Assembly (NCBI GenBank): GCA_041649955.1
Contig: JBAZMD010000001.1
Location: 68,079-132,078, forward strand
Origin: Patescibacteria group bacterium
Lineage (GTDB): Bacteria > Patescibacteriota > Patescibacteriia > UBA2591 > JAQUPP01
Direction of reading: 5' to 3'
DNA: 64,000 nucleotides
Positions 40,480-64,000 of the stretch are shown one piece after another. The notes below the pieces were generated by a model that worked only from the letters and a program-made list of their open reading frames with translations, did not search any database and had not been told where the DNA came from. Position 1 is the first letter of the stretch. The number at the start of each line of letters is the position of its first letter. The position numbers were made by a program, and so were the translations under genes.

Positions 40480-40494
40480 AATTGTCGATTTAGA

Positions 40495-40658: not shown

Positions 40659-40669
40659 ATAAAATAATT

Positions 40670-41506: not shown

Positions 41507-41513
41507 ATATTTT

Positions 41514-42962: not shown

Positions 42963-42980
42963 AATTTAATTTTAAATTAT

Positions 42981-43925
42981 TTACAAAGTCGTAATCGGCC
43001 TACTTTGTACGATATAGAACTTTTTATTTTCCAAAGCCCACTCAATATCGCAGGGAAATTTATAATGTTTTTCAATTTGAGCGCACAATTTAGCCAATTC
43101 AATAATTTGTTTGTTGTTGAATTTTTGTTTAGCACGCAATTTATTCGGCACTTTTACCCATTCGCTGCCAATGCCTGATTTTTTCTGAACAATCATTTTT
43201 TCTTGCTCTGAAATATTAATATCAATAATTTTCCATGTTTTTTTATTAATCACATAACTGTCAGGCGTAATATGTCCGCCGACAATCGCCTCTCCCAAAC
43301 CCCAACCGGCTTCAATAATCAGCTGGTTTTTATCTTTTGTAACAGGATGAGTGGTAAAACAAATGCCTGAAATTTCCGATTGAATCATTTTCTGAATTAC
43401 CACGGCCACGGAAACTTTTGATTTTCTCATTCCTTGTTCCCGGCGATAAACAATTGCTCTTTGAGTAAAAAGCGAAGACCAGCAATCTTTAACTCGACCT
43501 AATAAATTCTGCCGAGTTGTATTGAGATAACTTTCCAGTTCTCCGGCCCATGAAGCGACTGACGAATCTTCGGCTGTCGCGCTGCTCCGAACCGCCACAT
43601 GTTTTGCTTTTAATTTATCAAAATCAATTAAAATTTCTTGCTGTAAATCTTTAGGCATTTTTGCGTCATGAATTAAATCGCGAATTAATTTTGATGCCTG
43701 ATCAACCGAATTAACATCTTTATAATTCACTTTATTTAAAGCCGATTCAATTTCAACATCTATATCAGTTTCTGTTAAAAATCTTTCAAAGGCATCAGCC
43801 AAAACCACAAATCCCGGCGGCACTTGAATTCCCGCTTGTGTCATTTCTCCCAACGACGCCCCCTTGCCTCCGGCAATTCCAACATCTTTTTTTGATAATT
43901 GTTTAAAATTTTTAGTAAATTTCAT
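42981..43925 (-). CDS. Stand-alone PPDK_N / PpsA-type ATP-grasp nucleotide-binding domain protein
   Basis: 314 aa. Motifs GGKGASLGEM, VAVRSSATAEDSSVASWAGE and DIEWALENKKFYIVQSRPITTL. It has no swivel domain and no PEP/pyruvate domain. Confidence 0.85.
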   Translation of the reverse strand: MKFTKNFKQLSKKDVGIAGGKGASLGEMTQAGIQVPPGFVVLADAFERFLTETDIDVEIESALNKVNYKDVNSVDQASKLIRDLIHDAKMPKDLQQEILIDFDKLKAKHVAVRSSATAEDSSVASWAGELESYLNTTRQNLLGRVKDCWSSLFTQRAIVYRREQGMRKSKVSVAVVIQKMIQSEISGICFTTHPVTKDKNQLIIEAGWGLGEAIVGGHITPDSYVINKKTWKIIDINISEQEKMIVQKKSGIGSEWVKVPNKLRAKQKFNNKQIIELAKLCAQIEKHYKFPCDIEWALENKKFYIVQSRPITTL

Positions 43926-43945
43926 ATATTTTTATTTTAATTTAT

Positions 43946-48728: not shown

Positions 48729-48763
48729 AAAAAGTTATTAACAGCTTTTACATCATTTATTTG

Positions 48764-48799
48764 TACACTTATTTTTCACGGCCGTGTAAAATAAGTGTA
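48764..48799. repeat. 36-nt near-perfect palindrome between a terminator and the RRM-gene promoter
   Basis: tacacttatttttcacggccgtgtaaaataagtgta, with one central mismatch. Confidence 0.7.
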
Positions 48800-48802
48800 T
48801 AT

Positions 48803-48874: not shown

Positions 48875-49225
48875 TTATTTATCTCTTTGTAAAAATATTT
48901 TTTCTAAATCAGCCACTGTTTTCTCTAAAAGGTCAAAATAATGATTCTTTTTTTTATTGTTAATTTCTTTTTCGCAAAAGGTGTCATATTTCCATAAAAG
49001 AAGATGAATTAGCTCGTGTAAAATAATAGTATTATCTTTACCTGTTTTTTCTTTGGTGATTAAAATAATTGCTGATTTATTTTTTAAATTAATCTTAATA
49101 TCACCTGATTGTACAAAATCAGTTCTTTTAAAGTCAACTAATTTAACTTTTAATTTCCACTGGCTTAATTCAAAAACTCTTTGCCAGTATTTTAAATATT
49201 GATTTATTTTTTCTAATCTATCCAT
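48875..49225 (-). CDS. Small HExxH-motif protein (putative minimal metallopeptidase-like)
   Basis: 116 aa with IILHELIHLLLW. Last gene after the ABC permease (24-nt gap). Confidence 0.5.
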   Translation of the reverse strand: MDRLEKINQYLKYWQRVFELSQWKLKVKLVDFKRTDFVQSGDIKINLKNKSAIILITKEKTGKDNTIILHELIHLLLWKYDTFCEKEINNKKKNHYFDLLEKTVADLEKIFLQRDK

Positions 49226-52983: not shown

Positions 52984-53001
52984 ATTTTATTTATTTGTTA
53001 A

Positions 53002-53238
53002 TTATTTAATTAATTCTGTTAATTTATCAAGTTTTTTATGAAACACGGAAACAATCTTGCCGAATTGATTGCTCGGAATAAGAATTATTGTTTCTGCCGG
53101 AGTCAAAAAAGCCACCAGCTTATCGCCGCTTTTTATTTTCAATTTTTTGCGGATTTCGGCCGGAACTACAATCTGTCCCCGTTCGCCGACTGTGGCGGTA
53201 TCAAAACAAATTATGCTTTCAAAAAAATCTTTTTTCAT
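53002..53238 (-). CDS. AbrB/SpoVT-family DNA-binding protein
   Basis: 78 aa with the swapped-hairpin motif GERGQIVVPAEIRKKLKIKSGDKL. Lies 18 nt upstream of hlyD. Confidence 0.8.
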   Translation of the reverse strand: MKKDFFESIICFDTATVGERGQIVVPAEIRKKLKIKSGDKLVAFLTPAETIILIPSNQFGKIVSVFHKKLDKLTELIK

Positions 53239-53288
53239 AAATTTTTATATTAAATAATATGATTTATATGATACTTCATACAAATCAT

Positions 53289-53316
53289 ATTATAGCTAAT
53301 CTAAAATCTTCGTCAA
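53289..53316 (-). promoter_or_regulatory. Promoter for the abrB-hlyD-ABC operon
   Basis: gtgggggTTGACGaagattttagattagcTATAAT. The -35 box is embedded in the arm of an inverted repeat. Confidence 0.65.
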
Positions 53317-53436
53317 CCCCCACACCAAACTTAGCGCTTGATTTACATATTATAAAAGTCGTAAGACGGAAGCCGCTTCGCTCTTATCTCTTCATATTAA
53401 AAAAGCCTTACGTTGAGTTGTGGTGTGGGGGTCAAC
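53311..53436. repeat. Inverted repeat with C-rich and G-rich arms around the abrB promoter region
   Basis: cgtcaacccccacaccaaac (53311-53330) pairs with gttgtggtgtgggggtcaac (53417-53436). An internal cgtaag/cttacg pairing is also present. Confidence 0.6.
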
Positions 53437-53464
53437 CCCTCTGTGGACAAATTACAAATAACTC

Positions 53465-53507
53465 TAACAAAATAAATAGGGGTGAGAGAACTTGTCTCAC
53501 ACCCCCC
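53465..53507 (-). terminator. Intrinsic terminator closing the orphan transcript
   Basis: ggggtgtgaga-caagt-tctctcacccc, followed by tatttatttt. Confidence 0.6.
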
Positions 53508-53693
53508 TGGAGGATAACAGTGTATAAAGCTGTTATATCGATATTAGTGTTTTAAGGCGGTATTCCCCTATAATGGGACATGAGGACCTCCTATTTTTAG
53601 CAATTTAGGTAGCGCTCAAATTTGATCCCTTTCAGGATCTGGCTAGCGCTAAGCCATTGCTTTCATAAAAACCACCTCCTTTATATTATGATA
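53465..53693 (-). ncRNA. Candidate ~225-nt small transcript (promoter to terminator, no real ORF)
   Basis: Bounded by the TTGACA-N16-TATACT promoter and a hairpin plus U-run. Contains several hairpins (gatcc-tgaaa-gggatc, ataacag...ctgttat, AGCGCT palindromes) and two SD-led micro-ORFs (MKAMA at 53649-53666, MSHYRGIPP at 53552-53581). Confidence 0.4.
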
Positions 53694-53699
53694 TAAACG

Positions 53700-53727
53700 A
53701 GTATATCACATTTTAAAATTTTGTCAA
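53700..53727 (-). promoter_or_regulatory. Orphan promoter with no protein gene downstream
   Basis: TTGACAaaattttaaaatgtgaTATACT. Confidence 0.6.
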
Positions 53728-53733
53728 CTCTTT

Positions 53734-54135
53734 TTATTTAATTTTATCCACATTTCCATTGAGAATAATCGGTTTCATCGCTTCTATTTCATCCGTATAA
53801 TTCATTTTGGGAATCTGGTTTAATAAAAATATCTTTTTATTCAAGATATGCGCAAAAGCCATTTCTATCAAACTATTGCCGCCGATATAATTTTTAATAC
53901 CTTGCTTGTCTTTATTAATAACCAGTATCGCGTCGCACTTTTTTATTTCTTCAAAATATTCTTTAAAAACATCACCTTCAATTTTTGACCATTTATCTTC
54001 ATGATTAACTTCACCCTCGGCGTATTTTAAAATATCCTTTGGTGCAATCGCAATTAATCCTTTTGCTTCAAGGATTTTTTGAGTTTCCAATATTTCTTTT
54101 GAAAAGGCAATACTGCCGCAAATCGCAATTTTCAT
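53734..54135 (-). CDS. Small Rossmann-like protein, possibly nucleoside 2-deoxyribosyltransferase-like
   Basis: 133 aa counted from ATG 54135 (MKIAICGSIAFSKEILETQKILEAKG...). The -10 box is 6 nt from the ATG. The 32 extra upstream codons in the ORF track run through a long inverted repeat and were trimmed. Confidence 0.55.
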   Translation of the reverse strand: MKIAICGSIAFSKEILETQKILEAKGLIAIAPKDILKYAEGEVNHEDKWSKIEGDVFKEYFEEIKKCDAILVINKDKQGIKNYIGGNSLIEMAFAHILNKKIFLLNQIPKMNYTDEIEAMKPIILNGNVDKIK

Positions 54136-54141
54136 ATTTTT

Positions 54142-54169
54142 AGTATAATATTTTTTAAAATTATGTCCA
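54142..54169 (-). promoter_or_regulatory. Promoter for the 133-aa gene, leaderless geometry
   Basis: ggggTGGACAtaattttaaaaaatatTATACTaaaaatATG. Confidence 0.55.
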
Positions 54170-54230
54170 CCCCACCACCAAGAAATTATACTTCGCGTTA
54201 AAAAAATATAATTTCTAGGTGGCGGGGTCA
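54166..54230. repeat. Miniature (65-nt) member of the same hairpin family
   Basis: tccaccccaccaccaagaaattata ... tataatttctaggtggcggggtca. About 19 of 21 arm positions are complementary. Confidence 0.65.
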
Positions 54231-54274
54231 ATAAAAAAAATTGGGTGCAGACTAGTCAAACTAGTTCTGCACCC
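54231..54274 (-). terminator. Intrinsic terminator after the 137-aa gene
   Basis: gggtgcagaactag-tttg-actagtctgcaccc, followed by a T-run. Confidence 0.75.
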
Positions 54275-54281
54275 TGATATG

Positions 54282-54695
54282 TTATATACTCGCTATTTGG
54301 ATATTTAGCTCTTCCTGTTGTCTTCTTAGTGTGTCTCTAGCTTGAAAAACTAGAGAATTCTTATCTTCAATTCTAACCTTATTCAAAGATAAAGTTGAAG
54401 AGTTCTCAACAGAATTGACCGGTTTTACTATATTCACCTTTAGAATATTGAATTCGATTTTTCCAATCTCTTTTTTTACCGGTTTTACTAAAACCTGCGA
54501 AACTAATTCAACGGGCTGAGCAACGGTAGATAAATCATTATTACTTATCTCTATACTCATCGGCAATACTTCTGGCATTGTTGTTACCTTGCTTACAACC
54601 GGTGTAAATTTGTTTTCCAAATTTGTAGTAGAAGCATAAGCTCCTATGGCAGTAAACACAACAACAACTAACAGAATTTTTTGAAATTTATTCAT
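54282..54695 (-). CDS. Hypothetical secreted or membrane-anchored protein (137 aa)
   Basis: N-terminal hydrophobic helix KILLVVVVFTAIGAYA. SD GGGAGG, promoter module and terminator present. Confidence 0.6.
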   Translation of the reverse strand: MNKFQKILLVVVVFTAIGAYASTTNLENKFTPVVSKVTTMPEVLPMSIEISNNDLSTVAQPVELVSQVLVKPVKKEIGKIEFNILKVNIVKPVNSVENSSTLSLNKVRIEDKNSLVFQARDTLRRQQEELNIQIASI

Positions 54696-54784
54696 TTAAG
54701 ACCTCCCGTCTTATTAGTTTTGCGAATCCTTTCTTTTTAGCCCGGATTCGCTTCGGCTATTTACAAAGAACTATTGTGTTATAT

Positions 54785-54812
54785 ATAATAGCATATTTTT
54801 GAATTTTGTCAA
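54785..54812 (-). promoter_or_regulatory. Conserved promoter module (137-aa gene)
   Basis: gagggggTTGACAaaattcaaaaatatgcTATTAT. Confidence 0.7.
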
Positions 54813-54962
54813 CCCCCTCACATGTGGAAAACCATAAAGGGCATACTGTCTTTCGTTTTTTTATATATACACTGATTTTATCTTATCTATATGCTTATTT
54901 TTAACTTTATGCCTATTAAACTGTAATTTCCAAGAAAGACAATGGTTTTCCTTGTGAGGGGG
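54813..54962. repeat. MITE-like hairpin element with a C-rich and a G-rich arm, full-length copy (opposite orientation)
   Basis: Arms ccccctcacatgtggaaaaccat and atggttttccttgtgaggggg. Interior blocks match the reverse complement of the 19066-19222 interior. Confidence 0.75.
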
Positions 54963-54977
54963 CCAAGAGCAAATTTG

Positions 54978-55008
54978 GGGATAAATAAAAGGGGCGATTT
55001 CTCGCCCC
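54978..55008 (-). terminator. Intrinsic terminator after the 147-aa gene
   Basis: ggggcga-gaaa-tcgcccc, followed by ttttattt. Confidence 0.7.
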
Positions 55009-55029
55009 CCGTTTAAATACTTACTATTC

Positions 55030-55473
55030 CTATTCTTTTAGCTTCTTCATCCATGCCTTTAAACATTCTTCTACTTTTGGAAAGTCCTGAAACGTTGTGT
55101 TATCAGGACAGGAGATAATAATGACCATACTCTTACGTTCTATGACCGGATGCACCAGAACGCACATATCTTCCATGTCAAAGATGTTAAATTGATCATT
55201 ATCAATATCCCCAACATTTACATATGAAGCTGTCTTCCTGTGCTGCTTATACTGAAAAGTAAGAATAATGCCGGTATCTCGCGCAACTTTAGGATTTAAA
55301 ACTTCATAATCCATTATCTCTTCAATTTTCTCGGCTCCATAGAACATCAACTTGCCCACTTTTATTTTCCGCTGCTCTAATAAAATATATTTAAGCGCGG
55401 GAATATTATTCAGCTCCTCATCTATCTTTTCCGAATCTACTAATACATTATTCACTGCTGTTGTTGCGCCCAT
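55030..55473 (-). CDS. Hypothetical protein (147 aa)
   Basis: SD AGGGGGGG, promoter module and terminator present. No motif recognised. Confidence 0.6.
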   Translation of the reverse strand: MGATTAVNNVLVDSEKIDEELNNIPALKYILLEQRKIKVGKLMFYGAEKIEEIMDYEVLNPKVARDTGIILTFQYKQHRKTASYVNVGDIDNDQFNIFDMEDMCVLVHPVIERKSMVIIISCPDNTTFQDFPKVEECLKAWMKKLKE

Positions 55474-55527
55474 TATTGCCCCCCCCTTTTTTTTCTATTC
55501 AACGAACTTTAATTTTTATATGTTTTA

Positions 55528-55555
55528 ATTATAGCATATTTTTGATTTTTGTCAA
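55528..55555 (-). promoter_or_regulatory. Conserved promoter module (147-aa gene)
   Basis: TTGACAaaaatcaaaaatatgcTATAAT. Confidence 0.7.
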
Positions 55556-55585
55556 TAGATTGAAAAAAGGCGCTTAATTATTTAA

Positions 55586-55795
55586 TTAATACGCCTTCTT
55601 ATTCATACAGGCCTCCAAGATTTCTCTGAATGTCCTTTTATCCGATTTATCCGCATTGGGACAATGAGAAATTGGTTCTATTGGTAAAATTCCTAATCCC
55701 CTTAAAGTTTTCCTAACCTCATCCGCTTTAATCGCAGAATTGGGATTAGTAGGAATCTGCCAATAACCTGGATGGTTATTATCAAAAATGTCCAT
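55586..55795 (-). CDS. Hypothetical small protein (69 aa)
   Basis: SD AAGGAGG lies 4 nt before the ATG, with a promoter-like element upstream. Confidence 0.55.
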   Translation of the reverse strand: MDIFDNNHPGYWQIPTNPNSAIKADEVRKTLRGLGILPIEPISHCPNADKSDKRTFREILEACMNKKAY

Positions 55796-55815
55796 TTTTC
55801 CTCCTTTATATTAAT

Positions 55816-55843
55816 AGCATAGCATAAAATTGAGAAATGTCAA
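55816..55843 (-). promoter_or_regulatory. Promoter-like element (69-aa gene)
   Basis: TTGACAtttctcaattttatgcTATGCT. The choice of -10 box is ambiguous. Confidence 0.45.
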
Positions 55844-55897
55844 GATAGTTAAATTTAACTGTAATTTTCAGAAAAATAATAATCCCCATATGGGGAC

Positions 55898-55926
55898 TTG
55901 ACAAAAATCGGAAAATATGATATTTT
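55898..55926 (+). promoter_or_regulatory. Conserved promoter module in + orientation (158-aa gene)
   Basis: tccccatatggggacTTGACAaaaatcggaaaatatgaTATTTT, preceded by a 14-nt palindrome with a C arm and a G arm. Confidence 0.7.
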
Positions 55927-55996
55927 AAATGTATATAAATCAGTTATTTGAAAACCAAAAAAAAGTAAGAAGTAAAGAAAGAAGGAGGAGGTGAAC

Positions 55997-56473
55997 ATGT
56001 TTAATTTATTGGTGGCAGCAATGCTTATAGCCGCTCCCAAGACATATACAGTTCAAGGGGGTCCGGGACTTAGTTGCGACGGTTTCATATTTAGGGGTTC
56101 GGTAGACTACGGAAAGGTTGGTCTACAAATTTCGGAGTCCATATATTACAACATCGAGAAGAGTTACAACTTTCTTCACAGAGCAGAGTTCAGAACACTG
56201 CTTACCGGGACTGATTGTGACTATTTCTTTGTAGGGGGAGCTATCAATGAAACCAAAGGAAAGATTCCTACTACTGGTGTGGGAATAAGTGCCGGAGTGG
56301 GAGGTAGATTCACTTCTTGGTTCATTATAGAAGTGGGTCTTATCTGGGAAGTGTTCGGGGAATTCGGCGGAACATACAAATATGTATGTGACCGCAATTC
56401 ATTTGATAACTCATCCAGTAATAAATCAAAGTACGGTTGCATTTTCAATGTAACTGTTCCTCTGATAAGGTGA
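55997..56473 (+). CDS. Hypothetical secreted Gly-rich beta-type protein (158 aa)
   Basis: ATG 55997 follows GGAGGAGG. Signal-like MFNLLVAAMLIAAP. The same promoter module is present in + orientation, with a strong hairpin terminator downstream. Confidence 0.6.
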   Translation: MFNLLVAAMLIAAPKTYTVQGGPGLSCDGFIFRGSVDYGKVGLQISESIYYNIEKSYNFLHRAEFRTLLTGTDCDYFFVGGAINETKGKIPTTGVGISAGVGGRFTSWFIIEVGLIWEVFGEFGGTYKYVCDRNSFDNSSSNKSKYGCIFNVTVPLIR

Positions 56474-56481
56474 GAATTTTA

Positions 56482-56529
56482 GGGCCTTAGTCTATACACA
56501 TAATAGTATAGATTGAGGCCCGTTTTTTT
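56482..56529 (+). terminator. Intrinsic terminator after the + strand 158-aa gene
   Basis: gggccttagtctatac...gtatagattgaggccc, followed by gttttttt. Confidence 0.7.
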
Positions 56530-56570
56530 ATCTAAAAAGCGTAATGGGCGACAGATTTTCTGTCGCCCAT
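56530..56570 (-). terminator. Hairpin terminator after the Cys-rich 131-aa gene
   Basis: atgggcgaca-gaaaatc-tgtcgcccat, followed by tacgcttttt. Confidence 0.6.
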
Positions 56571-56573
56571 TGA

Positions 56574-56969
56574 TTATATTTGACATCCGGGATATCGCTC
56601 TGTGGGGATTCTTTCCCCGCCATTGTGATTTTGCGTCATTGCAATCTTTCGTTCAATGTTATCGCACCTTATACATTGAACACTGCCAAGTTTTTGAACC
56701 AATCGCAGAAATATACAGCAATCTTTCCCTCTGCCTCCTCCGCATTTTTTGATGTCGGTGATCTTTATTTCTTTTTCAAGTTCTATAACTTTCAGTTCAT
56801 CAGTTTTTACCGCTATTGCCGCAATAATGCCATCTCCAAAAAACAACACCGCTGTTTCGTCCAAATTGCAATGAGAAAATACACCTTGTATCGGACCTAC
56901 TAAATTACCACAACTGATACCTTCCATTCCTTTATAGGATACTACTGTTTGTTTCGGAATTTGTTCCAT
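56574..56969 (-). CDS. Hypothetical Cys-rich protein (131 aa)
   Basis: SD GGAGGTGGG. C-terminal Cys pattern KKCGGGRGKDCC...CIRCDN...PGCQI. No family recognised. Confidence 0.6.
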   Translation of the reverse strand: MEQIPKQTVVSYKGMEGISCGNLVGPIQGVFSHCNLDETAVLFFGDGIIAAIAVKTDELKVIELEKEIKITDIKKCGGGRGKDCCIFLRLVQKLGSVQCIRCDNIERKIAMTQNHNGGERIPTERYPGCQI

Positions 56970-57034
56970 TCATCCCACCTCCTTTTAAAAGATGCTTTTA
57001 AATCCTTAATTATTAGATTTAATTTGTTACTATT

Positions 57035-57063
57035 ATTTAAGCAAATTTTTTGATTTTTGTCAA
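57035..57063 (-). promoter_or_regulatory. Conserved promoter module (Cys-rich 131-aa gene)
   Basis: ggggTTGACAaaaatcaaaaaatttgcTTAAAT. Confidence 0.65.
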
Positions 57064-57078
57064 CCCCTATTACAAAAA

Positions 57079-57825
57079 TTATTCTTTGACCAATTCAACA
57101 GACAAGCTTTCAAGAGGGATTCCTTGATATTGCTTTTTGCTTATCTCTTTATTTTCCAATAAAATATTGGCAATAAATCCCACTTTTTTTATTTTATTCA
57201 AATAATCTTCTTTTAATAACGCTCCTGCCACGCAACCGGATAATAACTCTTCATTATTTCTTTGCTCGTCCGATAATTCTTTTAATAAAACAATATCAGA
57301 AACATACATTCTGCCTCCTCTTTTCAAAACCCTATAAGCTTCTTTAAACGTTTTTTCTTTATCCGGAGTAAGATTTATGACGCAGTTTGTTATTATAACA
57401 TCCACGGTATTGTCTTTAATCGGCAGATTTTCTATTTCTCCTAAAATAAATTCTAAATTTTTTAAATTATTATTTTTGGCGATTGATTTTGCTCTTTCAA
57501 CCATTGCCTCGGTCATATCTATTCCGATAACTTTGCCGTTTTCACCAACTTTTTTTGCGGCCAAGAAACAATCAATACCAGCCCCTGATCCCAAATCCAA
57601 AACCGTATCCCCTTCTTTTATCTTGCTTAGAGCTACCGGATTCCCGCAGCCAAGACCAAGATTCGCGCTCCCTGCTACTTTGAGATCATTTTCCGAATAT
57701 CCTATATCTTTTGAAATATTAACGCCTTTTCCGCAACTACAGCTGCAACCGCATTGAGAACCGCTCTTCGCCAATTCTTCATATTTACTTTTTACGATTT
57801 GTTTTATATCTTTAGAATTTTTCAT
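57079..57825 (-). CDS. arsM: ArsM-like SAM-dependent methyltransferase (arsenite/thiol methyltransferase layout)
   Basis: 248 aa. N-terminal Cys cluster SQCGCSCSCG, then GLGCGNP and motif I VLDLGSGAGIDCF. Confidence 0.7.
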   Translation of the reverse strand: MKNSKDIKQIVKSKYEELAKSGSQCGCSCSCGKGVNISKDIGYSENDLKVAGSANLGLGCGNPVALSKIKEGDTVLDLGSGAGIDCFLAAKKVGENGKVIGIDMTEAMVERAKSIAKNNNLKNLEFILGEIENLPIKDNTVDVIITNCVINLTPDKEKTFKEAYRVLKRGGRMYVSDIVLLKELSDEQRNNEELLSGCVAGALLKEDYLNKIKKVGFIANILLENKEISKKQYQGIPLESLSVELVKE

Positions 57826-57899
57826 AATTTAATTTTGCTTATAATATTTTATATTTTTAGTATAGCAAATTTAAATAAAAAAATATAGCAGCTTGTTTT

Positions 57900-57938
57900 G
57901 AATAAATTTTAAATGGGGAAAAGCTTTTGCCTTTCCCC
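57900..57938 (-). terminator. Hairpin terminator after the 140-aa gene
   Basis: A 10-bp stem ggggaaaggc/gcttttcccc with an AAAA loop. Confidence 0.6.
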
Positions 57939-57952
57939 ATTTCCTTCAATTA

Positions 57953-58375
57953 TTATTTTCTAAATGTCAGAGAAGAGAAGAAAGCAGGCAAGGCCTCAAT
58001 AATACGGCGCCGAAAATCAGCCTCTACTTCTAAAAATGGTTTCTCTTCTTGGATAGCCACTTTTAACATCCCGAATGTATTACCAATTAGAGCTCGGTGA
58101 CCCATTTCGTCTTCTACTTCCTTAAGTTCATCCTGATATTTCTGAAGTCCTAATTTGATGCTCATTACCAAACCATCTATCCTGGCAGGCTGATTTGAGA
58201 ATTTAACAATTTGCAAGACCTGGTATATATGTTTTAAGGTATCTTCCTGAATCCGCTTAACTTCTACTGTATAAAAATTACTATTTTTTTGGGCTAACCT
58301 TAATACATCTTGTTCTCTTTCCAGAATTTCTTTTATCTCTTCCCACTGTTTTTGATAAAGAACTTCTTTGCTCAT
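57953..58375 (-). CDS. Hypothetical helical protein (140 aa)
   Basis: Start moved to ATG 58375, 6 nt after GGGGGTG. The ORF-track GTG at 58384 abuts the SD. Promoter and terminator present. Confidence 0.6.
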   Translation of the reverse strand: MSKEVLYQKQWEEIKEILEREQDVLRLAQKNSNFYTVEVKRIQEDTLKHIYQVLQIVKFSNQPARIDGLVMSIKLGLQKYQDELKEVEDEMGHRALIGNTFGMLKVAIQEEKPFLEVEADFRRRIIEALPAFFSSLTFRK

Positions 58376-58405
58376 TTCAATCACCCCCTTTTTTTAATTA
58401 TTTAA

Positions 58406-58434
58406 AATATATCATAATTTTTACTTTTTGTCAA
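58406..58434 (-). promoter_or_regulatory. Promoter module (140-aa gene)
   Basis: TTGACAaaaagtaaaaattatgaTATATT. Confidence 0.65.
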
Positions 58435-58475
58435 GACATTTTTGAATAATAAAAAAAGATTTAAAGAATCTAGTT

Positions 58476-59066
58476 TTATACAGTGGCATCTCTCCTTTCT
58501 TTCACAAATCCTATCCGCTTGTTTTGTGCTGTCATTTTTATAAAGTAAGCGAGCGTTTTTTTATACATATCCATATGGTGCTGTTTGCGATCCTCAATAT
58601 ATGCAATTCTAATGCGCCGATATGAGAGCGGAAATGCTTGAAAATATTTCCAAGCATTCTTATTCCTCCGCAACGCCTTATAAATATCTTTGGGAACTGC
58701 AAATTTATTAGTTTCATCTATTTTCGGATTGAATGCATGCGCGATAGCTTTAAGTCCATATTTTGTCATCTTTTTTTCTTTTATGAGCTCATATATGCGC
58801 TCTCTATTCATCTGCGAAAGCCCGCTTCTTGATTTGCGCGGTGAAAAACGTTGCGCAAAACGCTCTTTGTCAATCTTTTTAACAGTGCTGTCAATCCACC
58901 CATAGCAAAGAGCTTCCAGGACCGCATCGTCATATGAAATACGAGGTTTCCCGGTTTCTTTGCGATAATATATAAGCCATATTTCTTTTTGGTTTTTATG
59001 ATTTTTTATCAGCCATTTCCGCCAATTTTTCCTATTGGTTACGTAAAGTGTATTTTTAATTTCCAT
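58476..59066 (-). CDS. YdeI/OmdA-family protein
   Basis: 196 aa with WRKWLIKNHKNQKEIWLIYYRKETGKPRISYDDAVLEALCYGWIDS. Extended -10 (TGaTATTAT) lies 6 nt from the ATG with no SD. Confidence 0.7.
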   Translation of the reverse strand: MEIKNTLYVTNRKNWRKWLIKNHKNQKEIWLIYYRKETGKPRISYDDAVLEALCYGWIDSTVKKIDKERFAQRFSPRKSRSGLSQMNRERIYELIKEKKMTKYGLKAIAHAFNPKIDETNKFAVPKDIYKALRRNKNAWKYFQAFPLSYRRIRIAYIEDRKQHHMDMYKKTLAYFIKMTAQNKRIGFVKERRDATV

Positions 59067-59072
59067 ATTTTT

Positions 59073-59081
59073 ATAATATCA
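59073..59081 (-). promoter_or_regulatory. Extended -10 element for the ydeI-like gene, leaderless geometry
   Basis: TGaTATTATaaaaatATG, with no convincing -35 box. Confidence 0.4.
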
Positions 59082-59103
59082 TTTTTTGTTCAAAAGTACC
59101 AGA

Positions 59104-59140
59104 TTTAAAAAAAATCAGGGGCGAACATAAGTTCGCCCCT
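59104..59140 (-). terminator. Intrinsic terminator after the 585-aa gene
   Basis: aggggcgaac-ttat-gttcgcccct, followed by gatttttttt. Confidence 0.75.
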
Positions 59141-59156
59141 TTATAATTCTCTCCTT

Positions 59157-60914
59157 TCATTTAAGATTATCGTTTATCGCTTTATAAGCCTTTTGAATAT
59201 TCCAGCCATCTCTATTACAGAGATGGTAAACAAAATTGTGGAGTTCTTTAAGATCGTATTCATCGTAGATAGAAATAAGCTTTCGAGTAAGAACAAAAAG
59301 ATGTTCTGCTATCAAATCATTGTCTGTCCTTTTTGTATCCACGTGAAGTTTCCCGCTTTCTGTGACCGTGATAATACTTGCGGCCATCAGCTTATTCAAA
59401 ATTCCCATGCATTCGTTGACGTATGGAGCCACGGTTGGATTATTAAAATTACTCTGTTCCAACATTCTGATTAAGTGAGAAATAATCATGGCAGCAAGAC
59501 TTGAGAAAGCTTCTTTTCTAATTTCATCACTGAGCGAACCATTTTCAATTGCCTGACGAACCCCTTCAATATCAAGCAGTGTTGCTTTCATTTCCTCAAC
59601 CTTTGACTTATTATCGCCAAAGACCTCAATTAAACGTTCATTAATACAGAAACAATGTCCAAATTCGTGGCCAAAGACGTCCAAGTAAGCGAATTCTTCT
59701 TTCAAAAATTTCATGGCCCAAGTTGAACTTTCCGGGTCAAGCACTTTTTGAATAAGACTCTGAAATCCGTGAAAACGCTGTTTCATGGATTCTTGATCTA
59801 AAAAAACTTTCATTCCCAGTGCTTGCGCTTCCGGATAATTTGGCACTGACTGACCGGCTAAACGAAAATCAATATTGGAACCGCTAGCCAAAATAGTCAG
59901 AAAAACTCCCACATCAGTTCTCTTAATCTTTTCAACGGCCCTTGGGTCAAATTTCTTTGCGAGATCGCTCATTTCTTTGCGCATAAGACCCAATTCTTTC
60001 GCATGACAACCTGTTCGCCATAATAAACGGTATTCCGGCGCTACGCGAATTGGAACCTCATAATCACTTTCCATCATATGAACAGGAATAAGACGACGGT
60101 CAGAACTGATTTCTATCCATTTTTTATCAACTTCTATCCAAAGAGTTTCCATTTGTTCCAAATCCTTATTAATCAAAGCAGTGCGAAGTGCTAAAAAATA
60201 TTCCCGATAATCAGTATCATCCGGCAAATTCTTTGCCAGTTGTTTTAGAATCTTGGCAATTCCATTAATTTCAATCGGAAACATCTCGACAAGCGGAATT
60301 TGTTTTGCCTTTTCAATTTGCTTTGCAGTAAGCGGTTTGGTATAAGGATTATTTGGACCCCTGGCAAGTACTGAATACTTATCGGTTTTCCCAAATTTTT
60401 GAATCAATTCCTTAAGTTCATCCGCACTCAACTTGCTTGTCCGAAACGGAATGACAACCCATTTCCACCACTTGCTGAAAAGATCATCAAAAAGCGTGCC
60501 TATTTTGTATCCGGCCTCGGCAATAAAATTTTCTTCATCAAACGCCAAAATATTAGGGCATGCCATACAGACATCTTTTAGGGCTGCGTGAATCGCATCC
60601 TGACATGGACGGACGACCAGCGAATAAAAAAATGACAACTTAACGGCGTCATCTTTTGGCAGTTGAGCACCTGCCGTATTGGTTCTTCTGGCCGCGTATT
60701 CCACTGCCAAATCAACCGGCACATTGAAATCAATTGCAATTATAATTTTTGCAATTTGATTTCTGATTTTCTTATCATTTATAAGAAAATAGTCAACACT
60801 GTCCATCATTTCCTTGAGTACCTCTGTGGGTTCTGACAAAATAAATTCTTTCGGCCTTTCTTTCAAAATCTCAATTAACTCCGCAGAGTATTCCTTTGCT
60901 TTTTTCAAATCCAT
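59157..60914 (-). CDS. Large hypothetical protein with an HEFGH (HExxH) zinc-peptidase-like motif
   Basis: 585 aa. DVFGHEFGHCF, with VEEMKA about 20 aa downstream. SD AAGGAGGTGGGAG. Uses a TGA stop. Confidence 0.6.
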   Translation of the reverse strand: MDLKKAKEYSAELIEILKERPKEFILSEPTEVLKEMMDSVDYFLINDKKIRNQIAKIIIAIDFNVPVDLAVEYAARRTNTAGAQLPKDDAVKLSFFYSLVVRPCQDAIHAALKDVCMACPNILAFDEENFIAEAGYKIGTLFDDLFSKWWKWVVIPFRTSKLSADELKELIQKFGKTDKYSVLARGPNNPYTKPLTAKQIEKAKQIPLVEMFPIEINGIAKILKQLAKNLPDDTDYREYFLALRTALINKDLEQMETLWIEVDKKWIEISSDRRLIPVHMMESDYEVPIRVAPEYRLLWRTGCHAKELGLMRKEMSDLAKKFDPRAVEKIKRTDVGVFLTILASGSNIDFRLAGQSVPNYPEAQALGMKVFLDQESMKQRFHGFQSLIQKVLDPESSTWAMKFLKEEFAYLDVFGHEFGHCFCINERLIEVFGDNKSKVEEMKATLLDIEGVRQAIENGSLSDEIRKEAFSSLAAMIISHLIRMLEQSNFNNPTVAPYVNECMGILNKLMAASIITVTESGKLHVDTKRTDNDLIAEHLFVLTRKLISIYDEYDLKELHNFVYHLCNRDGWNIQKAYKAINDNLK

Positions 60915-60986
60915 CTCCCACCTCCTTGTGGTTAAATTTAATTTTTTTCAATGAACAACTATTCCTCCTTTAATTTAATTATTTAT

Positions 60987-61015
60987 ATATTAATTTATTT
61001 TTTGGAAAATGTCAA
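60987..61015 (-). promoter_or_regulatory. Promoter (585-aa HExxH gene)
   Basis: TTGACAttttccaaaaaataaatTAATAT. Confidence 0.6.
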
Positions 61016-61077
61016 TATCAAAAAAAGACATTATTACTGCAGGTATTATTGATTGCACGAAAACCATTTGAATAAAT

Positions 61078-61114
61078 TTTGAATAATAATACCGGGTTAA
61101 TCGCTTAACCCGGT
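61078..61114 (-). terminator. Hairpin after the 130-aa gene (weak U-tract)
   Basis: accgggttaagcgattaacccggt. Confidence 0.45.
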
Positions 61115-61130
61115 AAATACTTATTTTTTA

Positions 61131-61523
61131 TTACGCCCACCTGAAAGCGGAATTTTCCAACTTCGCAATATCCTCTTTTGAGAGAACGGTCATAACCGGT
61201 CTTTCACCCCAATCAGGATTAGAAATACTGAGATATTCCAGAGAAATAGCCTGCTTACTATCGGGACTAACGAGAAGCGGCAATTCTTTTATCTCATTCC
61301 TTGTTTTCGGAAGTTTTTTAAGCACTTCCGGAAATAAACTGCAATCAGCGCAGAAAAACGGCTCATGCGACTTATGACCATTAAGCTTTACAAGAGCAGG
61401 AAGGAAACTTCCCATACCGTGTTTTTTCTCTATCAATCCACCTTTGACAATCCTCCAGCCATTAAGCTTTACGCCCTGCAATTCGCCTAATTTTTTAGGG
61501 TACTCATTTTTTAAATTTTTCAT
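61131..61523 (-). CDS. Hypothetical protein (130 aa)
   Basis: SD GAAGGAGG, promoter 61545-61573 and a hairpin downstream. Confidence 0.6.
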   Translation of the reverse strand: MKNLKNEYPKKLGELQGVKLNGWRIVKGGLIEKKHGMGSFLPALVKLNGHKSHEPFFCADCSLFPEVLKKLPKTRNEIKELPLLVSPDSKQAISLEYLSISNPDWGERPVMTVLSKEDIAKLENSAFRWA

Positions 61524-61544
61524 CTTTACCTCCTTCTAGATAAA

Positions 61545-61573
61545 AAGATAACATAAAAATATTTTTTTGTCAA
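61545..61573 (-). promoter_or_regulatory. Promoter (130-aa gene)
   Basis: TTGACAaaaaaatatttttatgtTATCTT. Confidence 0.6.
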
Positions 61574-61589
61574 TATCAAAAAAAGCCCT

Positions 61590-61943
61590 CTATGAAGGCT
61601 CTTTTTTAAAAATTTGCTTTTGTGCCAACAATAAACTTATTAATACTAAAATATTTAAAATCAGAGAAATGACATCAAAAATACCGACTTCATCTGTTAT
61701 TGATAATATTGCGTTAAATAGGGAGAAAATAATTGAGAATACGAAAATTATTTTAATTCTTTTTATTAATCCAAAAAGCGCAATGGCAAAAAATAAGGGT
61801 TCAAGAAATAATAATATTTTAAGTATTAAATAATTTTCGTAGGAAGCAAATTTAAAAAATGAAAAATAAACGGCGATTATGCTCCAAAAAATAATGCTTA
61901 TTATCAGAAGTATCTTGCATAAAATTAAAGGAAAAAATTTCAT
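61590..61943 (-). CDS. Hypothetical polytopic membrane protein (117 aa)
   Basis: Four hydrophobic helices. Lies 17 nt downstream of the previous membrane-protein gene. Confidence 0.55.
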   Translation of the reverse strand: MKFFPLILCKILLIISIIFWSIIAVYFSFFKFASYENYLILKILLFLEPLFFAIALFGLIKRIKIIFVFSIIFSLFNAILSITDEVGIFDVISLILNILVLISLLLAQKQIFKKEPS

Positions 61944-61960
61944 AATTTTAACTTTCGGCT

Positions 61961-62299
61961 TTATTTTTTTCTAAAAACTTTAATTTCTGAAAGATATTTT
62001 CTGCTCAAAAAAAGAGCGCCCAGTATAATAGCCGGAATAGATATGATCATTGATTCAAAACGGGAAAGAATAAGCATCAATAATCCAATGATAAGAAAAA
62101 TAAATCCTCCCAGTCGCTCATGTTTCCATGCAACGATAATCAGTATAAGCAAAGCAAATGACGGCAATAAATGCATAAAAAGAGGTAGAATAACTCTCCA
62201 GCCGCTGTATTCAGAAAACACATCAAGCGAAAACAAAGATAAAAATACGACAAATCCAATGCTTAAAATTCTCGGCAGCCAATAAATAATTTTATTCAT
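61961..62299 (-). CDS. Hypothetical polytopic membrane protein (start uncertain; the ORF extends to 62434)
   Basis: From ATG 62299 it reads MNKIIYWLPRILSIGFVVFLSLF... with four TMs. Upstream in-frame codons overlap a promoter-like TTGTTA-N16-TATGAT (62334-62361) and lie only 33 nt from the terminator of the preceding gene. Confidence 0.5.
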   Translation of the reverse strand: MNKIIYWLPRILSIGFVVFLSLFSLDVFSEYSGWRVILPLFMHLLPSFALLILIIVAWKHERLGGFIFLIIGLLMLILSRFESMIISIPAIILGALFLSRKYLSEIKVFRKK

Positions 62300-62467
62300 A
62301 TGATTAATATATTTATTTATAAAGATTGATTTAATCATAGCAAAAATGGAAAAAATAACAAGGTGAAATAAAATAGCGAATCTACGTTTGGTATTATAAA
62401 TTTTAATTATTCCATTCCTACAATTTGGCCTCATTTGGAAACCGCGGCTTTAATTTAATAAAGATTA

Positions 62468-62501
62468 AAAAAACCGCCCTAATTTTCATTAGTGGCGGTT
62501 T
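62468..62501 (-). terminator. Intrinsic terminator after the 80-aa membrane gene
   Basis: aaaccgccactaa-tgaaaa-ttagggcggttt, followed by ttttt. Confidence 0.7.
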
Positions 62502-62515
62502 AAATTCGAATTTAA

Positions 62516-62758
62516 TTACATTTTAAGAAATGTCCATCCATACTTTACAAACATGCCTATCATAGCCAGGATACTTCCAAAAACCATTCCGATTCCGGCG
62601 ATACAGGTAACATTGAATGATTGATGAAATTTGGCCCAATCTTTTATAATTGGCCAGTAGCTCCCTTTTACTCCGTCTGTGAACATTGAGATAGCGAATA
62701 CTATGAATGAAAGTATCAGTATACCCAAACCCATCTTAACGAGAAAAAAATTAGTCAT
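62516..62758 (-). CDS. Hypothetical small membrane protein (80 aa)
   Basis: Start set at ATG 62758 after AAGGGGGAG (MTNFFLVKMGLGILILSFIVFAI...). The upstream ORF-track codons cover the promoter module at 62815-62843. Confidence 0.6.
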   Translation of the reverse strand: MTNFFLVKMGLGILILSFIVFAISMFTDGVKGSYWPIIKDWAKFHQSFNVTCIAGIGMVFGSILAMIGMFVKYGWTFLKM

Positions 62759-62814
62759 CTCTCCCCCTTTATTGCTTTTTAAAAAACTATTGTTAGTTTT
62801 TATATTATATTTAA

Positions 62815-62843
62815 ATAATAGCACATTTTTCACTTTTTGTCAA
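62815..62843 (-). promoter_or_regulatory. Promoter module (80-aa membrane gene)
   Basis: TTGACAaaaagtgaaaaatgtgcTATTAT. Confidence 0.65.
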
Positions 62844-62862
62844 GTGTAATTATCTCTAATTT

Positions 62863-62892
62863 TAAAAAATAACCGCTTAAATAAACGGTTAT
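62863..62892 (-). terminator. Intrinsic terminator after tRNA-Gln
   Basis: ataaccg-tttatttaag-cggttat, followed by ttttt. Confidence 0.65.
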
Positions 62893-62896
62893 TTTT

Positions 62897-62970
62897 TGGC
62901 TGCGGGAGATGGATTCGAACCATCATAGCCAGCTCCAAAGGCTGGAGTCCTACCATTAGACGATCCCGCA
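62897..62970 (-). tRNA. tRNA-Gln (anticodon UUG), CCA encoded
   Basis: A 74-nt cloverleaf read by hand. Acceptor TGCGGGA/TCCCGCA (U1-A72), D arm GTCT-AATGGTA-GGAC, anticodon stem CCAGC/GCTGG with loop CTTTGGA, variable CTAT, T arm GATGG-TTCGAAT-CCATC, then G-CCA. Confidence 0.9.
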
Positions 62971-62979
62971 ATATATATT

Positions 62980-63234
62980 TTATATTATTTTATTTTTAAG
63001 TATTCTTTTACCTTTCGCGGTCTTATAAAATCTTTCCATTCTATAAGCTTCATATTTATCAGGGTAATTTTCAAAATAAATTAACTTTATCGGCAACCTA
63101 CTACGAGTAGAAAAAACTTTTTTACTTTTATGTTCTATTAATCTCTTCTGTAAATTAGAAGTACAGCCTATATATAAATTATCATCTTTTAGACTTCTTA
63201 AAACATAGATTGTATGCATTGTTTTATTTACCAT
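62980..63234 (-). CDS. Small GIY-YIG nuclease-family protein
   Basis: 84 aa with IYVLRSLKDDNLYIGCTSNLQKRLIEHKS...YENYPDKYEAYRMERFYK. The start could also be the Met at 63219. The start codon lies inside a duplicated tRNA D-loop sequence. Confidence 0.8.
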   Translation of the reverse strand: MVNKTMHTIYVLRSLKDDNLYIGCTSNLQKRLIEHKSKKVFSTRSRLPIKLIYFENYPDKYEAYRMERFYKTAKGKRILKNKII

Positions 63235-63318
63235 TAGCCTCGCCCGTAGGCAGTAGCCTACTGGCTACGGCCGTCTCACCCGTAGGTTACGACCGAGGGA
63301 GGGACGATCCCGCAATAT
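63229..63318 (-). repeat. Duplicated 5' fragment of tRNA-Gln split by a 66-nt GC-rich insert
   Basis: ATATTGCGGGATCGTC (63303-63318) equals 62959-62974, and TAATGGTA (63229-63236) equals 62951-62958. Between them lies 63237-63302, GC-rich with hairpin gtagcc-agta-ggctac and two copies of cccgtagg. Confidence 0.8.
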
Positions 63319-63325
63319 TCAAATT

Positions 63326-63353
63326 ATTATAACAAATTTTAAAAATTTGGCAA
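63326..63353 (-). promoter_or_regulatory. Promoter feeding the pseudo-tRNA 5' fragment, the GIY-YIG ORF and tRNA-Gln
   Basis: TTGCCAaatttttaaaatttgtTATAATaatttgaatATTGCGGGATCGTC. Confidence 0.6.
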
Positions 63354-63354
63354 A

Positions 63355-64000
63355 TTATTTACCTCGCCATTTCCAAAAATATTTAATCCCGCTGGCAATA
63401 TGAATCCATGTAATTTTAGATAATAAAGTCGGACTAGTGCTGCGTTCCGCAGAAAGCCGCTGATGGAAATGATACATATGAGCTTCGGGAAAATAATAAA
63501 CTTTTTTGCCGAATTTCCAAATCCGCCGCGCCAAATCAGTGTCTTCAAAATAAAGAAAAAATCTTTCATCAAAATAATTAATTTTTTCCAAAACTTCTTT
63601 TTTAATCATTAAGGCCGCGCCCAAAAGCCAATCCACTTCTTTTGTTTCATTGTGTTGCCAATCTGACATTAAATATCTGCCTAATTTCTTTTTCAAAAAA
63701 GGAAGTTTTCCTAAAAAAGTTCGGCGGAGAATCGGCATATACCAACAAGGAAATTGACAGCTGGAATACTGGATTGTTCCATTGGGATTTAATAGTTTGG
63801 GTCCGACCATCGCCGCTTCATTATTTTCTTCTAAAAATTTATAAAGTTTTTCCACTGAATCTTTTAAAACAATCACGTCCGGATTTAAAATTAAAACATA
63901 TTTTCCCTGAGCCAATTTAATCCCCTGATTATTCGCCCGGGCAAAACCATAATTCTTATTATTTAAAATAACCCTAAGTTTTAAAGACGGCATATTAAGT
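63355..64000 (-). CDS. Family 2 glycosyltransferase (5' end outside the window)
   Basis: NKNYGFARANNQGIKLAQGKYVLILNPDV...FFLYFEDTDLARR. The frame stays open upstream of the first Met to the window edge. Confidence 0.8.
   Translation of the reverse strand, partial: LNMPSLKLRVILNNKNYGFARANNQGIKLAQGKYVLILNPDVIVLKDSVEKLYKFLEENNEAAMVGPKLLNPNGTIQYSSCQFPCWYMPILRRTFLGKLPFLKKKLGRYLMSDWQHNETKEVDWLLGAALMIKKEVLEKINYFDERFFLYFEDTDLARRIWKFGKKVYYFPEAHMYHFHQRLSAERSTSPTLLSKITWIHIASGIKYFWKWRGK

Follow-up and report, generated by a model that had tools for sequence, protein, structure and literature searches.

The 64-kb window of a Patescibacteria genome analysed here (hereafter W; approximately 35% GC) carries, between a tRNA-Gln gene and a MazE-HlyD-ABC-MacB exporter operon, an interval of approximately 9 kb (53734-62892) which probably represents a flexible genomic island with slots of the minimal-mobile-element type, where turnover takes place by homologous recombination and by deletion between short repeats. 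The locus is, as such, a known type of flexible genomic island and reveals no new mechanism or cassette machine. Four versions of the locus were compared, all from metagenome assemblies, namely W, L009 (JGI Ga0265297), L007 (= L002; NCBI JAQUOF010000003.1) and L004 (a 256-kb JGI contig). The genes for OmdA, ArsM and a deoxyribosyltransferase-fold protein (dRT) are retained in all four at 89-99% amino acid (aa) identity, while the genes between them are different, absent or only 29-45% identical. An earlier note on this DNA had described an accessory stretch that looked like a cassette array built gene by gene, which a syntenic and invariant interval in relatives would have contradicted. The interval is not invariant, as the four versions differ gene by gene, and turnover of single genes is thus upheld; the three conserved genes, however, contradict a uniformly accessory character, and deletions with orphan terminators, allele swaps and the lack of any sign of dedicated machinery speak against a cassette array.

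The three relatives are approximately 90% identical to W at the nucleotide (nt) level, with 87-97% nt identity in the backbone genes, while sequences L001 and L087 (ENA), a fourth independent assembly, are identical to W. The L009 sequence begins within the DUF7897 gene. W and L004 align over 36% of the interval versus approximately 89% of the 19-kb downstream flank, with a 6.4-kb block set aside.

Variation between the four versions

The 14 open reading frames (ORFs) reported between the exporter operon and tRNA-Gln were all recovered in place. Better starts lie downstream for three genes, as judged from ribosome-binding sites and orthologues (dRT, 54135; DUF7670, 62299; 80mem, 62758). The features are as follows:

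62897..62970 (-): tRNA-Gln (UUG), identified by ARAGORN and Rfam (63.4 bits); conserved upstream anchor of the hotspot
62516-62758 (-): 80mem, an 80-aa membrane protein with two transmembrane (TM) segments; unit A (62465..62843), promoter and terminator
61961-62299 (-): DUF7670 membrane protein (Pfam PF24709, 1.4e-26); unit B-C (61580..62361), weak promoter
61590-61943 (-): 117mem, a 117-aa protein with four TM segments; unit B-C, terminator at its end
61131-61523 (-): 130-aa orphan; unit D (61010..61585), promoter and terminator
59157-60914 (-): HEFGH protein, 585 aa, DUF7897; unit E (59117..61015), promoter and terminator
58476..59066 (-): YdeI/OmdA protein (PF13376), backbone gene; leaderless-type promoter
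57953-58384 (-): 143-aa coiled-coil orphan; slot X (57875..58474), promoter and terminator
57079..57825 (-): ArsM, S-adenosylmethionine (SAM) methyltransferase of the arsenite methyltransferase family; backbone gene
56574-56969 (-): Cys-rich 131-aa orphan; slot Y (56539..57076), promoter and terminator
55991-56473 (+): inverted gene, 160 aa, hydrophobic N-terminus; block 55898..56521
55586-55795 (-): 69-aa orphan; block 55586..55990
55030-55473 (-): 147-aa family gene; block 54989..55555, perfect consensus promoter and terminator
54282-54695 (-): 137-aa signal-anchored protein family; block 54243..54812, promoter, conserved leader and terminator
53734..54135 (-): dRT gene, 133 aa, predicted nucleoside 2'-deoxyribosyltransferase-like fold; backbone gene

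Gene order in the four versions, with numbers giving protein lengths in aa, is:

W: GT2, GIY-YIG, tRNA, 80mem, DUF7670-117mem, 130, DUF7897, OmdA, 143, ArsM, 131, inverted 160, 69, 147, 137, dRT, tiny-ORF unit, MazE and onwards
L009: (from within DUF7897) OmdA, empty slot, ArsM, 131 (76%), inverted 153, unrelated small ORF, 154, 144, 135, dRT, tiny-ORF unit, MazE
L007: GT2, tRNA, DUF7897, OmdA, 54 (opposite strand), 116 (TM), ArsM-Vut_1, inverted 153, 65, 143, 137, 134, dRT, 187, tiny-ORF unit, MazE
L004: GT2, tRNA, 80mem, OmdA, 79 (opposite strand), ArsM-Vut_1, inverted 159, 66, 143, 148, 135, dRT, 210, tiny-ORF unit, MazE

In L004 and L007, tRNA-Gln is found where it stands in W. Among the backbone proteins, aa identity is 93-97% for OmdA, 96-99% for ArsM and 89-91% for dRT. 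Unit A is shared by W and L004 (79% aa identity) and absent from L007, while unit B-C is found in W only, with L007 retaining its terminator alone, a 117mem-type hairpin directly after the tRNA. Unit E is present in W, L009 and L007 and deleted in L004, where the DUF7897-type hairpin is left behind 80mem. These orphan terminators indicate that the tRNA-proximal differences are marks of deletion from a fuller, W-like array. Unit D lies between exact copies of an 18-nt direct repeat, CTTTTTTTGATATTGACA (61568-61585 and 61010-61027), which comprises a T-run plus a -35 box and of which L007 has one copy. Furthermore, an A-run is found at the tRNA junction of the L007 deletion, and the 116-aa TM gene specific to L007 lies between AATTTG repeats.

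Slot X, which extends from 2 nt after the OmdA stop codon to approximately 50 nt before the ArsM start, holds the 143-aa gene in W, is empty in L009, and is occupied by an unrelated opposite-strand gene (79 aa) in L004 and by that opposite-strand gene (54 aa) and the 116-aa TM gene in L007. Slot Y, delimited by the ArsM stop codon and the terminator shared with the inverted gene, contains the 131-aa gene in W, a 76% identical allele in L009, and in L004 and L007 a promoterless gene, Vut_1 (226 aa), operonic with ArsM. At the 69-aa position L009 has an unrelated small ORF.

Much of the variation consists of swaps for a divergent allele of the same family and not of presence or absence. The inverted-gene product of W shares 45% aa identity with that of L004 and 29% with that of L007, with no significant similarity to the L009 product or between those of L004 and L007. 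In the 147 family, the W protein shares 39-41% identity with that of each other version, the L004-L007 pair reaches 92% and L009 shares 34-35% with both, while the 137-family protein of W is 96%, 60% and 32% identical to those of L007, L009 and L004, respectively. The 135-aa gene product is 97.8% identical between L009 and L004. Even L004 and L007, which share 97-100% aa identity in GT2, OmdA, ArsM, dRT and MazE, differ in at least five units (80mem, DUF7897, the 116-aa TM gene, the inverted-gene allele and the 137 allele, the latter at 32%). The 137 swap is delimited by the promoter/leader block and the terminator hairpin, which, together with the T-run/-35 repeat at the 130-aa unit, agrees with the earlier expectation that breakpoints fall at promoters and hairpins. 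One breakpoint is intragenic, as the C-terminal 48 or so codons of the 147 gene are conserved, placing it at approximately 55173.

Conservation within the variable block is the reverse of that in its flanks. Non-coding nt identity reaches 71-85% at the promoters of the inverted and 69-aa genes (55796-55990) and 85-90% in the 147/137 spacer, versus 54-68% for coding sequence, with a shuffle baseline of 57%; the flanks show 86-92% for coding and 74-82% for non-coding DNA. Furthermore, the 137 gene is 97% identical at nt level between W and L007 versus 62% between L007 and L004. For the 147 gene the L007-L004 pair stands at 91% and all other pairs at 58-68%, and W and L009 share 97% in ArsM versus 90% in HlyD. 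Judged by these identities, allele similarity at 137, 147 and ArsM is in conflict with the relationships of the backbone. The reversed conservation and this conflict suggest recombinational replacement anchored in conserved flanks.

The alternative that nothing is exchanged, and that fast-evolving or decaying lineage-specific orphans diverge and vanish in place, would account for the inverted, 147 and 137 families standing at the same positions in all four versions, for the 5' leaders of the 137 alleles being still recognizably homologous and for the documented deletions. It is nevertheless improbable, since the 137 gene of W matches that of L007 though L007 and L004 are 97-99% identical in adjacent genes, since single slots hold unrelated genes (143, 79 aa on the opposite strand or nothing; 131 or Vut_1; 69 or an unrelated ORF), and since coding sequence at random-level nt identity lies beside intergenic DNA that is 85-90% identical.

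Proposed turnover and likeness to known systems

We suggest that the tRNA-Gln, OmdA, ArsM and dRT-fold genes, the exporter operon and the conserved intergenic blocks with promoters and terminators would form a scaffold holding single-gene slots with fast-changing coding content. In a first process, to which the mosaicism points, homologous recombination of incoming DNA would swap the coding sequence between homology arms provided by the backbone genes and by promoter or terminator blocks of 100-300 nt. The outcome would be replacement by a very divergent allele of the same family (the inverted gene and the 147 and 137 families) or by an unrelated gene (slots X and Y and the 69-aa slot). In a second, shown by the repeats and leftover terminators, deletions take place between short direct repeats made up of reiterated T-run/-35 sequences and A-runs. 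No element-encoded recombinase would take part.

Two published definitions fit the pattern of the locus: the additive flexible genomic island at a tRNA (PMC4898812) and the minimal mobile element between conserved flanking genes (PMC3787668). Additive islands, known from Alteromonas and other aquatic bacteria, likewise occupy the same chromosomal position in relatives, at a tRNA, carry strain-specific mixes of small units encoding mostly hypothetical proteins, and include units that are sometimes closer to each other than the core genes, as are 137 in W and L007 and the 135-aa gene in L009 and L004, a small sample (PMC4898812). The locus described here differs in lacking a tRNA-fragment repeat downstream of the units, and integrases, in having single-gene units, in that tRNA-proximal change is better explained by deletion than by addition, and in that half of its variation is allelic replacement in a conserved scaffold. 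Minimal mobile elements (2007, as cited in PMC3787668) share with it variable content between specific conserved flanks, the absence of mobility genes and a mosaic distribution as expected for homologous recombination in the flanks, slot X (OmdA-ArsM) and slot Y (ArsM-shared terminator) being cases in point. Unlike in those elements, several slots are chained within 9 kb here and the arms would include short promoter/terminator blocks and not genes alone.

The cargo consists mostly of lineage-restricted small secreted, membrane or orphan proteins, signal peptides or TM segments being predicted in many of them, and a GT1/GT2/Wzy cluster is located upstream of the tRNA in L007. From these predicted features, the cargo probably comprises strain-specific surface or secreted proteins, and the probable payoff would be variation at the cell envelope or at the interface with host or phage, its diversity kept by frequency-dependent selection. 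Hypervariable surface loci such as the O-antigen/glycotype loci (PMC4898812) similarly show very divergent alleles at a fixed position and a glycosyltransferase/Wzy cluster alongside, with diversity probably kept by selection at the cell surface; the units swapped here are, however, single small protein genes and not multi-gene glycan operons.

Several points weigh against this interpretation. Recombination is deduced from mosaic identity among four metagenome-assembled versions, and the very divergent alleles could stem in part from fast divergence in place. Two inverted-repeat elements, E1 and E2 (see below), are 93-98% identical among genomes whose genes are approximately 90% identical, and use as homology arms falls short of explaining this conservation above background; they may have a function of their own, as a small RNA or regulator site, or take part more actively in exchange. 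That the cargo acts at the surface or host interface is a guess based solely on signal peptides and TM segments, and PADLOC, PHROGs, Pfam and PDB sequence searches were empty for the orphans.

Patescibacteria, members of the candidate phyla radiation (CPR), have tiny genomes with few recognizable mobile elements, and strain-level change in their gene content is poorly described. The locus provides a base-resolved example, in which small genes would be exchanged or deleted within a fixed promoter/terminator frame even at approximately 97% genome identity. Its secreted and membrane cargo and the adjoining surface-glycan cluster make it a candidate site for host-attachment or phage-evasion determinants in an episymbiont, and the region would also serve as a marker by which to follow strains in metagenomes.

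Promoters, terminators and inverted-repeat elements

Sigma70-like sites number 67, versus 43.1 ± 5.0 in shuffles, and approximately 13 of the 14 genes have a promoter-like site. Nine are preceded by canonical TTGACA-N16-17-TAnnnT sites, mostly with an extended TG (-35 starts at 62843, 61573, 61015, 58434, 57063, 55843, 55898 on the plus strand, 55555 and 54812), and DUF7670, OmdA, ArsM and dRT by weaker or extended -10 sites. The only promoterless gene is the 117-aa membrane gene, which starts 17 nt after the DUF7670 stop codon. Terminator-like hairpins number 19 versus 7.0 ± 2.6 expected, with approximately ten gene boundaries carrying one. The earlier count of eleven genes with their own promoter was thus fair; for boundaries with a hairpin the earlier note had counted nine. 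The single inverted gene indeed carries the same promoter type (55898, plus strand) and shares a bidirectional terminator (56482-56521).

The interval promoter type, TTGACAAAAATCAAAAA(A)TATGCTATTAT, often with GGGG before it, is found also at 25372, 27154, 28123, 28569 and 38226, before ordinary genes outside the interval. The promoter is therefore not the special module or joint that the earlier note took it for; on its distribution in W, it is the general strong promoter of the organism and not a mobile joint. Its density in the interval follows from the genes there being small and monocistronic, and each unit has its own promoter and terminator because monocistronic transcription from a single type of strong consensus promoter is common among the small genes of the organism. 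Another series of single-gene units (78, 285, 141 and 115 aa) with the same consensus promoter (28569, 28123, 27154 and 25372) lies at 25300-28650. The promoter at 28569 has some 62 nt (82%) in common with the 137-family promoter, including the leader motif AGTTCTTTGTAAT, and a similar motif also follows the 147 promoter.

Four inverted-repeat elements and a tiny-ORF unit are associated with these promoters:

53312..53439 (-): E1, 110-nt inverted-repeat element on the -35 of the MazE-HlyD-ABC-MacB operon promoter
53470..53727 (-): tiny-ORF unit with promoter, MKAMA* (53649-53666), MSHYRGIPP* (53552-53581) and intrinsic terminator
54169..54231 (-): E3, short hairpin with 25-nt arms, the right arm carrying the dRT -35
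54813..54962 (-): E2, long inverted repeat with arms of approximately 20-30 nt and an AT-rich loop of approximately 80-120 nt
L004 8463-8600: E4, long inverted repeat

The arms of E1-E4 end in CCCC/GGGG, their AT-rich loops reach approximately 120 nt, and all lie next to the -35 of the following promoter. The arms of E1, CCCCCACACCA...TGGTGTGGGGG, stand between 9-nt direct repeats (GGGGTTGAC), and L009 has the precise empty site. E2 abuts the -35 of the next promoter and is 93-94% conserved, above genome background. At E3, L009, L004 and L007 have two long inverted copies (approximately 137 nt) around an extra secreted-protein gene of 134/135 aa that is absent from W. Each genome has one copy of E1 (W and 88 loci searched), and the E elements are single-copy in that sequence. 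Miniature inverted-repeat transposable elements (MITEs) were considered for E1-E4, as E1 ends in inverted repeats, lies within a flanking direct repeat and has an empty-site counterpart in L009; MITE status is unproven, since there are no dispersed copies in the sequence compared.

A dedicated cassette platform, in which promoter-gene-hairpin units would be moved by site-specific recombination in an integron-like manner, has some features in its favour. Several indels end at the -35 box, as seen in the 18-nt repeat at the 130-aa unit and the GGGGTTGAC repeat around E1, the motif GGGGTKGAC occurs six times versus 0.33 expected, with five of the six within 53312-57067, the 134/135-aa gene lies between 137-nt inverted repeats, and intergenic blocks are conserved above background. 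We nonetheless give it little credence. No recombinase is found in or beside the interval, attC-like box pairs (RYYYAAC...GTTRRRY) number zero in 53001-63400 versus 1.97 ± 2.07 in shuffles, and many breakpoints lack any repeat. The hairpins are ordinary terminators, as all have different GC stems followed by T-runs, and the promoter type with its GGGG-TTGACA context stands at ordinary genes elsewhere. The E elements, finally, are single-copy. Integron cassette arrays resemble the interval as linear series of small orphan genes in one orientation, with intervening hairpin DNA, that vary between close relatives; their cassettes are, however, promoterless and served by a common Pc, whereas here the units have their own promoters and Rho-independent terminators and housekeeping-like genes are interleaved. 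An integron was rejected for the absence of IntI and of attC-like pairs, and for the promoter-like sites of 13 of the 14 genes.

It is similarly unlikely that the promoter-proximal blocks (the GGGG-TTGACA -35, E1-E3 and a promoter/leader module of 28-60 nt) act as active recombination joints. If they did, the CPR bacteria of this clade would swap single genes on a platform that is anchored at promoters and needs no integrase, and the conservation of the intergenic DNA, which exceeds that of the coding cargo and of the genome background, would be accounted for.

The tiny-ORF unit, located upstream of the exporter operon, is also found in L004 (9320-9480), L007 (19200-19360) and L009 (6570-6800). 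The tiny ORF ends in GIPP-stop throughout (MSHYRGIPP* in W, MFHYKGIPP* in L009, MLLKGIPP* in L004 and L007), with a consensus promoter and a terminator stem that varies between lineages, and the unit could give rise to a small RNA or to a peptide with a leader or arrest role. L004 and L007 carry an extra gene before it (210 and 187 aa, respectively).

Mobility, predicted products and distribution

In agreement with the earlier note, Pfam scans of the 14 interval and six flanking proteins detected no integrase, transposase or recombinase domain, and the repeat search found no repeat of the tRNA 3' end, the only repeat being one of its 5' end around a GIY-YIG gene. Together with GC and tetranucleotide content within the range of W, this supports the claim that the interval is not a classical integrative island. 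The compositional comparison further showed atypical codon usage in 10 of the 14 genes (z -1.9 to -7.5 relative to controls of matched length; inverted gene -7.5, DUF7897 -5.1, 147 gene -4.9), with ArsM and dRT typical.

Decay of one or several integrative elements that had entered at tRNA-Gln and lost their integrase and att repeats, as proposed for tRNA-flanked islands in other streamlined genomes, would agree with the adjoining tRNA, the presence/absence variability being highest in the five tRNA-proximal genes, the atypical codon usage of 80mem, 130 and DUF7897 and the fact that a mobile GIY-YIG gene hit the same tRNA. The chance that this is the origin of the interval appears small: integrase, excisionase and tRNA 3'-end repeat are missing, variable genes are still met 9 kb away from the tRNA, amid conserved backbone genes, neither GC nor tetranucleotide content is deviant, and deletions that left terminators explain the tRNA-proximal differences.

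The GIY-YIG gene (84 aa, 62980-63234) lies just outside the interval and, with a 66-nt GC-rich segment, makes up an insertion (62974..63318, minus strand) that separates tRNA-Gln from its promoter and lies within a duplication of 21 nt from the 5' part of the tRNA (TTGCGGGATCGTC / TAATGGTA). The GC-rich segment contains the internal repeat CCTACGGGYGAG twice, folds at -38 kcal/mol (z = -2.2) and has no Rfam match. In L004 and L007 the gene is absent and promoter and tRNA are uninterrupted. From its position, the gene would be co-transcribed with tRNA-Gln; homologues in L015 and L035 are not beside tRNAs.

With regard to the encoded proteins, the earlier calls of an ArsM-like methyltransferase, a YdeI/OmdA protein and an HEFGH protein are supported. 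ArsM scores 306 bits against the NCBIfam arsenite methyltransferase model NF008823 (cut-off 263), OmdA matches PF13376, and the HEFGH protein matches DUF7897 and, distantly, the NCBIfam model of CiaB, a Campylobacter invasion protein (1e-13, near full length, far below the family cut-off). NCBIfam yielded no other match among the interval proteins. DUF7897 has five members among 5.8e9 proteins, i.e. four besides that of W, and an AlphaFold2 (AF2) model from the five-sequence alignment was too poor for a metalloprotease fold search (predicted local distance difference test, pLDDT, 56.5). The inverted-gene family has just three relatives among 1.84e9 cluster representatives. For the four small membrane proteins proposed, the prediction gave three that are polytopic and one with a signal anchor.

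Sequence comparison does not bear out the deoxyribosyltransferase-like call, which the predicted fold supports. The dRT protein has no Pfam match at E<=0.01, with PF05014 reached only at E=0.065, the sole useful match when the orphans were compared with Pfam at a relaxed E<=5. Its AF2 model (pLDDT 89.8) has nucleoside 2'-deoxyribosyltransferases as the top 13 Foldseek matches in PDB (E approximately 2e-5, TM-score approximately 0.6), followed by BcmB/MilB, DNPH1 and YtoQ. The conserved Glu after the fourth strand of the nucleoside 2'-deoxyribosyltransferase superfamily is present, and E91 in GGNSLIEMAFA is invariant in 55 sequences. The 133-aa protein is thus modelled with a nucleoside 2'-deoxyribosyltransferase-like fold, and no specific activity is assigned because the PF05014 match is below threshold. 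The family has at least 912 members, none with a Pfam assignment, and sequences 57-70% identical to the W protein occur in other Patescibacteria and in DPANN archaea (records named Woesearchaeota, Nanoarchaeota and Pacearchaeota), which is unusually strong conservation for ultra-small symbionts belonging to two domains. In both OmdA and dRT a -10 box (TATTAT / TATACT) lies only 6 nt upstream of the ATG, without a Shine-Dalgarno sequence (59066-59095; 54135-54170), which suggests that their mRNAs may be leaderless, whereas strong GGAGG sites precede the orphan genes.

No defence or phage family was matched by the nine proteins without family assignment in PADLOC, which was also negative for OmdA, or in PHROGs, where the flanking GIY-YIG protein alone scored. 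When dRT, DUF7897 and the inverted gene were compared with PDB by sequence, nothing meaningful was matched, and Rfam, at gathering thresholds and at E<=1, detected only the tRNA.

The W proteins carry the NCBI name "Patescibacteria group bacterium", and nearly all genes of W are on the minus strand. The interval belongs to one genus-level clade of Patescibacteria. A search for relatives with HlyD returned one cluster at 92%, the next matches all being at or below 55%, and an HlyD scan of the genome collection found one relative. An ArsM-based metagenome scan returned 78 loci, with L009 as the sole additional close relative. At ArsM loci of 64-73% identity the neighbouring genes are unlike those of the interval, except for one DUF7670 gene in L016 (3964-5566), a more distant Patescibacteria contig (ArsM 71%), where the homologue follows ArsM at a distance of approximately 700 nt; no other interval neighbour was seen again outside the clade. 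Exact-protein look-ups gave no match for the DUF7897 and DUF7670 proteins and, for the 130-aa protein, an 11.6-kb contig from the same sample as L001 and a 995-bp Logan contig, too short for context.

The 6.4-kb block set aside in the alignment (40481-46867) contains five genes, encoding a SAM methyltransferase, a PPDK_N ATP-binding protein and three paralogues with a C-terminal PEP-utilizers mobile domain. It is missing from the otherwise collinear L004 and is operon-sized, unlike the single-gene changes of the interval. Furthermore, a 44-nt perfect palindrome (ACACTTATTTTACACGGCCGTG...; 48757-48800) is located beside a W-specific 116-aa orphan ORF (48875-49225) between MacB and an RRM gene. 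The same palindrome is found elsewhere in L004 (5786-5823), L007 (15713-15750) and L009, between the 69- and 147-family genes, and behaves like a dispersed hairpin of the repetitive extragenic palindrome (REP) kind.

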